Position numbers and translations under genes: made by a program. 64,000 nucleotides of DNA from Gammaproteobacteria bacterium (GTDB taxonomy: Bacteria; Pseudomonadota; Gammaproteobacteria; Ga0077536). The stretch is taken from assembly GCA_963662545.2 (NCBI GenBank), contig CAXXLL010000002.1, positions 2,304,001 to 2,368,000 of the forward strand. The letters run 5' to 3'. The notes under the pieces are model-generated. The model ran no database searches. It saw only the letters and a program-made list of their open reading frames with translations, and had not been told where the DNA came from. Shown in pieces: positions 24,617-24,854 of the stretch (its first letter is position 1; each line of letters opens with the position of its first letter).

Positions 24617-24715
24617 GGAGGGTTTAAGGGCTGGCTCGGCGGCCCGGTCCAAGCGTCAGCGGTGGTTCAACTTGTGAGAAGCTTGCCACCGCTGACGGCC
24701 CGGGACTACATCCAT

Positions 24716-24816
24716 GCGGACGTGGTGGAATTGGCAGACACGCCGACTTTGGGGGTCGGTGGGGGTTGATCCTTTGACCAGGGGACCCCGTGCAGGTTCG
24801 AGTCCTGTCGTCCGTA
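24716..24816 (+). tRNA. tRNA-like gene: Leu-type body, TGG (Pro) anticodon, 32-nt variable arm
   Basis: Acceptor GCGGACG/CGTCCGT with A73; D arm GTGGAATTGGCAGACAC; anticodon arm CCGAC-TTTGGGG-GTCGG; T arm GCAGG-TTCGAGT-CCTGT. Confidence 0.8.
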
Positions 24817-24854
24817 TACCATTAATCCGCTGCTGAAAGCTTGGCAGAAAAACG

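Follow-up and report, generated by a model that had tools for sequence, protein, structure and literature searches.

In a 64,000-nucleotide stretch of a gammaproteobacterial genome (assembly GCA_963662545.2, contig CAXXLL010000002.1, positions 2,304,001 to 2,368,000; hereafter "the window," numbered from its first base), we found that a class II transfer RNA (tRNA) gene with a leucine-type body and the proline anticodon UGG is a conserved passenger of an IS1595-family transposon. The original prediction for this region, made from the sequence alone, had described the tRNA; its place in a transposon, which is the central fact, was missing from it. We tentatively propose, with slightly less than even confidence, that the gene encodes a functional missense tRNA that would be charged by leucyl-tRNA synthetase (LeuRS) and would decode CCN codons as leucine, and that it is carried as a conserved passenger of the transposon.

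The tRNA gene lies at window positions 24716-24816 on the forward strand. It matched the Rfam tRNA model RF00005 at 45.8 bits over model positions 1–71 (gathering score, 29) and scored 114.2 bits with our own covariance model; ARAGORN made no tRNA call in the entire window, for which the long variable arm is the presumed cause. The acceptor stem reads GCGGACG/CGUCCGU, with a G1-U72 pair, and is followed by U8, G9, and a D arm with a 3-bp stem (GUG/CAC), G13 opposite A22, and the loop AAUUGGCAG, which contains A14, A15, and G18G19. The anticodon stem CCGAC/GUCGG closes the loop UUUGGGG, with the anticodon UGG at 24750-24752; beyond it are the variable region, U48, the T arm GCAGG-UUCGAGU-CCUGU, and A73 at 24816. 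The original prediction had described the same cloverleaf, and all the details listed there were present in the sequence and its Rfam alignment. Compared with tRNA-Leu, the window tRNA has A73, A15-U48, A14, and G18G19 and lacks a leucine anticodon (NAG or NAA); compared with tRNA-Pro, it has G35, G36, and A73 and lacks C1-G72, G15-C48, and a class I body. A 9-bp acceptor stem, which had been considered as an alternative fold, is not conserved among the 10 copies from genomes: the positions −1 and N73 can pair in only 5 of these, and the copy in the congeneric genome G001 has A73 followed directly by CCA. The single-sequence fold of the window tRNA (z = −1.45, with a minimum-energy structure that is not the cloverleaf) was uninformative. 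Because this fold is not significant, the case for the window tRNA rests on its homologues, and it is these, rather than the folding energy, that indicate that the gene is more than chance.

In G001, which belongs to the same genus, a 103-nt homologue (50.8 bits) occurs beside a transposase 90% identical to that of the window and beside the same left inverted repeat. The element is at a different site, after pth. Its tRNA keeps UGG and has a G1-C72 pair; the D, anticodon, variable, and T stems all show compensatory differences from the window tRNA. A search over 16 kb did not reveal the right inverted repeat of the G001 element, which may be interrupted; a second, different IS1595-type transposase gene is present just past the first, on the other strand (L003 2745-3107). 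BLASTN and covariance-model scans of 81 genomes of the host family (equivalent to the whole order) detected a long-arm copy in G001 only, and a sample of 150 genomes of the class gave no match at E ≤ 1e-15, a threshold that would miss short-arm members.

The family loci were fetched via the transposase and not via the tRNA. In the reference genomes, all nine loci (transposase identity, 54–88%) had a class II tRNA beside the transposase; the loci belong to metagenome-assembled Gammaproteobacteria genomes, to Lysobacterales, Nevskiaceae, and Pseudohongiella, and to one member of Gemmatimonadales. A metagenome scan with an alignment of ten transposases gave 448 relatives, of which the best 80 were examined; 61 of these 80 loci had a family tRNA, and the 19 loci without one were mostly contigs cut near the transposase. 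In the transposase tree (FastTree), tRNA-bearing elements occurred on every major branch. Furthermore, in six elements of 2.4–3.7 kb (L067, L069, L071, L072, L073, and L074), repeats with the tip GGAAGTATGTACTT and target duplications of 8–10 bp bracket the transposase together with the tRNA.

For the counts given below, the 59 of 90 loci that had a hit were used, which yielded 57 distinct tRNAs. Ten loci were left out as duplicates (L076, L078, L080, L086, L099, L114, L123, L127, L134, and L144), as were L130, truncated at its 5′ end, and L091, a degenerate copy; L068 did not pass the E-value limit. In L091, the family tRNA (936-1016, reverse strand, 37.7 bits) has a disrupted T arm and overlaps the 3′ end of the transposase match, i.e., decay of the family tRNA occurs in some elements. 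Another metagenome element (L098, L099) has two different leucine-type tRNAs with UGG, of 100 and 113 nt (921-1020, forward strand, and 2154-2266, reverse strand), which flank the transposase. The linkage was also recovered with a tRNA-first test, in which an IUPAC pattern matching 45 of the 57 family members was run on 400 other genomes of the class. It gave five matches, compared with two for the reversed control; the one genuine further member among the five, a 100-nt tRNA with UGG (87 bits), also adjoins an IS1595 transposase (58% identity) and a repeat.

The results indicated that the fold and the anticodon are conserved throughout the family. Across the four canonical stems, pairing is intact in 99.6% of cells, and two-sided changes occur at 18 of the 20 pairs (266 cells), whereas only 37–47% of cells pair in controls in which the partner was slid by 1–3 columns. 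An independent analysis of 21 short-arm members with MAFFT and RNAalifold predicted a class II cloverleaf in which compensation was seen at 22 of 23 pairs. The sequences of the anticodon stem all differ. The anticodon was NGG in all 73 family tRNAs seen, with G35 and G36 in 57/57; C and G did not occur at N34, which was U in 52 and A in 5, and the AGG form had at least three origins on the transposase tree. Position 33 was U in 53/57, and N37 was A in 41, G in 15 (including the window copy), and C in 1. A15, U48, and G9 were found in 57/57 and A14 and A73 in 55/57; the 1:72 pair was G-C in 47, G-U in 7, C-G in 2, and U-A in 1, and the D arm of the family has a 3-bp stem and a loop of 9–12 nt. 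The homologue search suggested in the original prediction gave an NGG anticodon with covarying stems. Homologues carrying UAG and a normal arm had been named there as evidence for a pseudogene or sequencing error, and with respect to the anticodon this expectation failed, as every member had UGG or AGG.

The giant variable arm is indeed present in the window tRNA, where the variable region (24760-24791) is about 31–32 nt long and 29 nt of it form a long interrupted hairpin, but contrary to the original emphasis it does not define the family. Variable regions range from 12 to 49 nt (12–16 nt in 23 members, 20–34 nt in 25, and 42–49 nt in 9), so the giant arm is a variable trait and one state of a very plastic feature. 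The layout of the window arm recurs with compensated stems in G001 and five others, i.e., in 7 of 32 long arms: a stem is followed by a 3-nt bulge, then by GA facing GA (or UA), and finally by a second stem. Both stems covary, while the GA dinucleotides persist. By sequence layout alone, it fits what we take to be the kink-turn consensus (canonical stem, 3-nt bulge, tandem G.A/A.G). This kink-turn-like arm is shared by L066, L072, L083, L147, L096, and L149. In Escherichia coli, translation is compatible with long engineered variable arms (PMC7590224).

The element that carries the window tRNA is a 3.3-kb transposon (23497-26798) inserted between folE2 and mazG; its features are summarized in Table 1. 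IS1595-family elements have a DDE_Tnp_IS1595 transposase with an N-terminal zinc ribbon, short inverted repeats, and a target duplication of about 8 bp, and members with passenger genes were reportedly described by Siguier and colleagues in 2009. The window element has a transposase with a zinc ribbon (PF12762, 3.5e-44; PF12760, zinc ribbon, 1.9e-10; NF033547, 6.6e-59), inverted repeats, a target duplication, and an empty counterpart site: in G002, a congeneric genome, the two flanking sequences directly adjoin each other, and only one T-run, followed by AC, is present. The 22-nt core of the repeat occurs in exactly two copies in the 5.58-Mb host genome, in inverted orientation, at 23500-23521 and 26774-26795, and the left repeat differs from the right one near the tip.

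Table 1. Features of the IS1595-family transposon and its passenger tRNA in the window.
Feature	Position	Strand	Evidence or remark
Left duplicated target, (G)TTTTTTTAC	23487-23496	.	Same decamer at 26799-26808; empty site in G002
Left terminal inverted repeat, GCGAGTATGTACCTGAGTAAACCCT	23497-23521	+	22-nt core; tip GGAAGTATGTACTT in related elements
Small basic open reading frame (ORF), 56 aa, motif GPKxERVKI..DW..A...ALKK.RP..GWP	23556-23726	-	Homologues in 8/10 elements
Promoter-like site TTGAGA-17-TACTAT, upstream of ORF and tRNA	23730-23758	+	9/12 consensus matches
Passenger ORF, 274 aa from ATG (312 aa from TTG at 23678)	23792-24616	+	RNA contigs
12-bp perfect hairpin between passenger ORF and tRNA	24654-24697	+	Inverted repeat
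Class II tRNA, 7/5 cloverleaf, leucine-type body	24716-24816	+	Rfam, own covariance model, family covariation
Extended variable arm	24761-24789	+	Outer stem 24761-64/24786-89, 3-nt bulge 24765-67
Variable arm interior	24768-24785	+	G24768.A24785, A24769.G24784, inner stem 24770-73/24780-83, loop 24774-79
3′ trailer UA, then CCA (24819-24821), out of register with A73	24817-24821	+	Sequence
IS1595-family transposase, 333 aa, convergent with tRNA	24855-25856	-	PF12762, PF12760, NF033547
Promoter-like site TTGACG-17-TACAAT before transposase start	25863-25891	-	10/12 consensus matches
Passenger ORF, 97 aa, possible toxin of a toxin-antitoxin pair	26041-26334	+	Sub-threshold DUF4258, E 0.072
Passenger ORF, 116 aa, possible CopG/BrnA-type antitoxin	26358-26708	+	PF12441, E 2.9e-4
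Right terminal inverted repeat	26774-26798	-	Inverted match of left repeat
Right duplicated target, GTTTTTTTAC	26799-26808	.	Direct repeat flanking the terminal inverted repeats

In 8 of 10 elements, the small, very basic ORF (about 50 aa) is found next to one of the inverted repeats. This ORF had no significant match in Pfam or NCBIfam and only unnamed clusters in the Atlas, and it may be an accessory protein of this insertion-sequence clade. This ORF, the transposase, and the repeats are the only partners conserved with the tRNA; the remaining cargo differs between elements, and in related elements it is often toxin-like (Gp49/HigB-like with a helix-turn-helix protein, Fic/Doc, or an NYN nuclease). 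The 274/312-aa passenger ORF had no match in Pfam or NCBIfam, and homologues of it were found, among the elements compared, only in L067 and L071. The PF12441 match of the 116-aa ORF (22 bits) is under the cut-off of 28, and an RNA-library contig covers 26027-26251, in the region of the 97-aa ORF. Outside the element, a second transposase gene (DDE_Tnp_1 with DUF772) is located at 20515-21861 on the forward strand, 1.6 kb upstream, and an HNH endonuclease ORF (PF14279, PF01844) at 27695-28318 on the forward strand, just past mazG. Upstream of folE2, at about 22069-22337, short repeated or inverted segments match one G002 region several times, which suggests a local duplication of about 164 bp.

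As to which synthetase would recognize this tRNA, E. coli LeuRS has no anticodon determinant and needs A73, A15-U48, G18G19, and A20a, the sequence and fold of the variable arm being immaterial, and the determinants of bacterial prolyl-tRNA synthetase (ProRS) include G72, G35, G36, A73, and G15-C48 (PMC9976931). The family keeps the whole leucine set and, of the proline set, only the anticodon and A73: position 72 is C or U in 54/57 and G in 2, and A15-U48 takes the place of the G15-C48 of tRNA-Pro. The host tRNA-Pro genes have C1-G72. The host genome (three contigs, 58% G+C) encodes a full tRNA set, including Pro UGG, CGG, and GGG and Leu UAA, CAG, GAG, UAG, and CAA. The next-best host matches of our covariance model were tRNA-Leu CAG, UAG, and GAG, not Ser or Tyr, and the D arm of the window tRNA matches those of the host tRNA-Leu genes, not those of Ser, Tyr, or Pro. 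Global identity to the host class II tRNAs (68–83%) was not a discriminating guide to the isotype; the D-arm comparison and the model ranking point to leucine. Judging from the retained leucine set, the partial proline set, the host matches of the model, and the D arm, charging of the window tRNA with leucine is the most likely outcome. In the same genome, ARAGORN made two odd calls, a 90-nt "tRNA-Glu" with a displaced anticodon (C2 142495-142584) and a tRNA with a 2-base anticodon (C3 2603809-2603903); both are without CCA and below the Rfam threshold, and they are probably false calls.

Under the proposed mechanism, the window tRNA would be transcribed, probably together with the upstream passenger ORF. 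Co-transcription is plausible because this ORF is preceded by a promoter-like site and the tRNA has none immediately upstream; in the same consensus scan, such sites were no more numerous in the region than in shuffled sequences. RNase P and the 3′ processing enzymes would then excise the tRNA, and a CCA-adding enzyme would supply the CCA; such an enzyme is plausible because the host has two PolyA_pol-family genes. The host LeuRS, reading A73, A14, A15-U48, and G18G19 and ignoring the anticodon, would charge the tRNA with leucine, and the charged tRNA would compete with the host tRNA-Pro at CCN codons, which would lead to a low level of proline-to-leucine substitution across the proteome. Given that the transposon clade has kept the combination throughout its divergence, the effect would have to serve the element or its carrier, for which proteotoxic stress, a mutator-like state, and an addiction-like effect alongside the toxin-antitoxin cargo are candidates. 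The presence of the window tRNA in RNA libraries is a hint of expression. It is covered by error-free contigs (24473-24813, 24700-24910, and 24591-24832) that come from a study with two metatranscriptome runs and from a single run, possibly of RNA, in a different study, and RNA-library contigs also cover the passenger ORF upstream. In neither metatranscriptome run was there a contig on the transposase body (24921-25973), and this uncovered part is not interpretable.

However, the following points weigh against decoding of proline codons as leucine. First, the 57-tRNA alignment used for the covariation was fitted to the model, and four members have C33. Second, at least six transposase relatives with ample flanks are without a tRNA (L120, L138, and L151–L154; L104 and L107 are doubtful). 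Third, the CCA of the window copy is displaced by 2 nt, while all 48 credible host tRNA genes have CCA in register; for this reason, its maturation is less certain than that of the G001 copy. Fourth, the RNA contigs have a depth of 2–9 and no strand, end, or level information, and DNA carry-over is possible. Fifth, the consensus scan found no promoter-like site directly upstream of the window tRNA, and sigma-70-like sites were not enriched relative to shuffles in the 90 nt that precede each of the 57 family tRNAs, so that the idea of an own promoter for the family tRNAs was dropped. Sixth, G35, G36, and A73 are ProRS determinants too, and two family members have C1-G72 as in tRNA-Pro. Finally, proline-to-leucine substitution should be harmful, and the proposed benefit is conjectural. 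Within the family, G35, G36, A15, and U48 never vary and A73 occurs in 55/57, so the insertion of leucine at proline codons remains the leading reading. As for the 3′ end in general, CCA is encoded in register in 9/57 family tRNAs. It is displaced by 1–2 nt in the window copy (A-UA-CCA), in L090, L093, L095, and L128 (A-CA-CCA), and in L147 (A-U-CCA), which by eye looks commoner than chance, and 10 of the 57 have a T-run ≤ 3 nt from the 3′ end.

An alternative that we consider unlikely, and yet the most serious of the rivals, is that the RNA serves the transposon outside translation, as a tRNA-shaped regulator or cofactor in which the anticodon loop is a recognition site and not a decoder. It might act on the mRNA of the convergent transposase, as an antisense or processing signal; it might associate with the transposase or the small basic protein; or it might counter an anticodon-directed nuclease, as a decoy or RNA antitoxin. 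The narrow set of conserved partners and the rarity of an in-register CCA are consistent with such a role. In the commonest layout, moreover, the 3′ end of the tRNA lies 13–60 nt beyond the transposase stop on the other strand, and the RNA-library contig at 24700-24910 spans the tRNA into the 3′ end of the transposase gene. However, the placement is not fixed: the tRNA may be downstream and convergent, about 0.5 kb downstream, 1.1–1.3 kb upstream, or about 120 nt upstream and divergent, which is incompatible with antisense action as a general role. Toxin-like cargo would suit a role outside translation, and allo-tRNAs are similarly associated (PMC5389517), but this cargo varies from element to element. 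The full LeuRS set, the standard 7-nt loop, and a purine at position 37 in 56/57 are what decoding needs, beyond the needs of a protein-binding hairpin.

A less probable alternative is that ProRS charges the tRNA, wholly or in competition with LeuRS, which would make it an extra tRNA-Pro, harmless or ambiguous, with a class II body. Because G35, G36, and A73 are also ProRS determinants, charging with proline, or with both amino acids, is possible. All three are strong bacterial determinants and are conserved, and the C1-G72 pair of two members and G37 in 15/57, the window copy included, agree with it. Nonetheless, among the listed determinants, G72 is absent in 55/57 and G15-C48 is replaced by A15-U48 in 57/57, and the host already has tRNA-Pro UGG, CGG, and GGG. 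ProRS charging alone would also give no reason for the invariance of A15-U48, A14, and A73 while the stems turn over. Last, the null model of the original prediction, a functionless, decaying tRNA-Leu(UAG) with an A35G change, or otherwise a chance tRNA-like fold, is suggested by the G1-U72 pair, the out-of-register CCA, and the unequal left repeat of the window copy, by the failure of ARAGORN to call it, and by the clearly degenerate L091, but is contradicted at the family level by the NGG anticodon in all 73 tRNAs, the massive covariation, and co-inheritance with a transposase that has diverged to 54% identity; we regard it as highly improbable and reject it, the combination of a leucine-type body with a proline anticodon being the selected state.

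Three further ideas were tried and dropped. A "private code," in which the transposase needs CCN to be read as leucine, was not borne out, as the 11 conserved-leucine columns of 76 distinct transposases contain proline in one cell only. A CsrA sponge with GGA in the loop does not fit, as position 37 is A in only 41/57 and not in the window copy. The third idea, that the anticodon loop pairs with the tip of the repeat (GGAA/TTCC), fails for the window copy and for G001.

Compared with the canonical bacterial tRNA-Leu (CUN isoacceptors), the family shares the class II body, the 7/5 branch, the 3-bp D stem, A14, A15-U48, G18G19, and A73. It differs in having UGG or AGG in place of NAG or NAA, an arm that is often two to three times longer, a CCA that is rarely encoded, and a transposon as carrier instead of a chromosomal tRNA locus. 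With the allo-tRNAs (Mukai et al., 2017, PMC5389517), the family has in common its bacterial origin, a discord between identity elements and anticodon, long variable arms, and locations near transposon-related genes and toxin-antitoxin systems. However, allo-tRNAs have an 8/4 or 9/3 branch, a long Sec-like D stem with a tetraloop, mostly serine or alanine identity (G73/U73), and many anticodons, whereas the present family has a 7/5 branch, a leucine-type D arm, A73, and one codon box. The window tRNA is thus not an allo-tRNA, because it has a 7/5 branch with a leucine-type D arm, and the allo-tRNA likeness first suggested does not extend to structure. The tRNA-ProX of the actinomycetes Streptomyces and Kitasatospora, with its ProRSx (PMC11415595), is also a natural, conserved bacterial dual-identity family and a predicted mistranslator. 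It is the reverse case, with a proline body and alanine, asparagine, or threonine anticodons, a class I body, A33, A15-A48, and its own synthetase; in our family, the element carries no synthetase and the carrier is an insertion sequence. The nematode nev-tRNAs are class II with non-leucine, non-serine anticodons and are leucylated in vitro, but they are eukaryotic, have glycine (CCC) or isoleucine (UAU) anticodons, and have no known link to mobile elements (PMC3333845, PMC4300185).

In principle, the family would work like an allo-tRNA, a tRNA-ProX, or a nev-tRNA without being any of them. We know of no description of a tRNA as an IS1595 passenger, nor of one kept throughout a clade. Literature searches likewise brought up neither a tRNA within IS1595 elements nor a mistranslating tRNA borne by a transposon, subscription journals and supplements being largely outside its reach.

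Natural tRNAs in which body and anticodon are mismatched are rare, and allo-tRNAs, tRNA-ProX, and nev-tRNAs have no known biological role. The present family is distinct in three respects: the mismatch is fixed, with one identity and one codon box, across deep divergence; the cloverleaf is standard and should suit any bacterial translation system; and the gene is bound to a defined mobile element with clean ends. These features together make the purpose of deliberate mistranslation experimentally tractable. The family is also a natural source of translation-type tRNAs whose variable arms reach 49 nt. We put forward, as a possibility held with rather less than even confidence, that this IS1595 clade, which occurs in Gammaproteobacteria and at least one Gemmatimonadales genome and is common in metagenomes, carries a recoding device of its own, a LeuRS-charged tRNA that reads proline codons. 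It would, to our knowledge, be the first clade of insertion sequences to have a tRNA among its conserved parts. If the clade does carry such a device, a mobile element would deliberately lower the decoding fidelity of the cell that it has entered, and the tRNA would be as integral to the element as its transposase.

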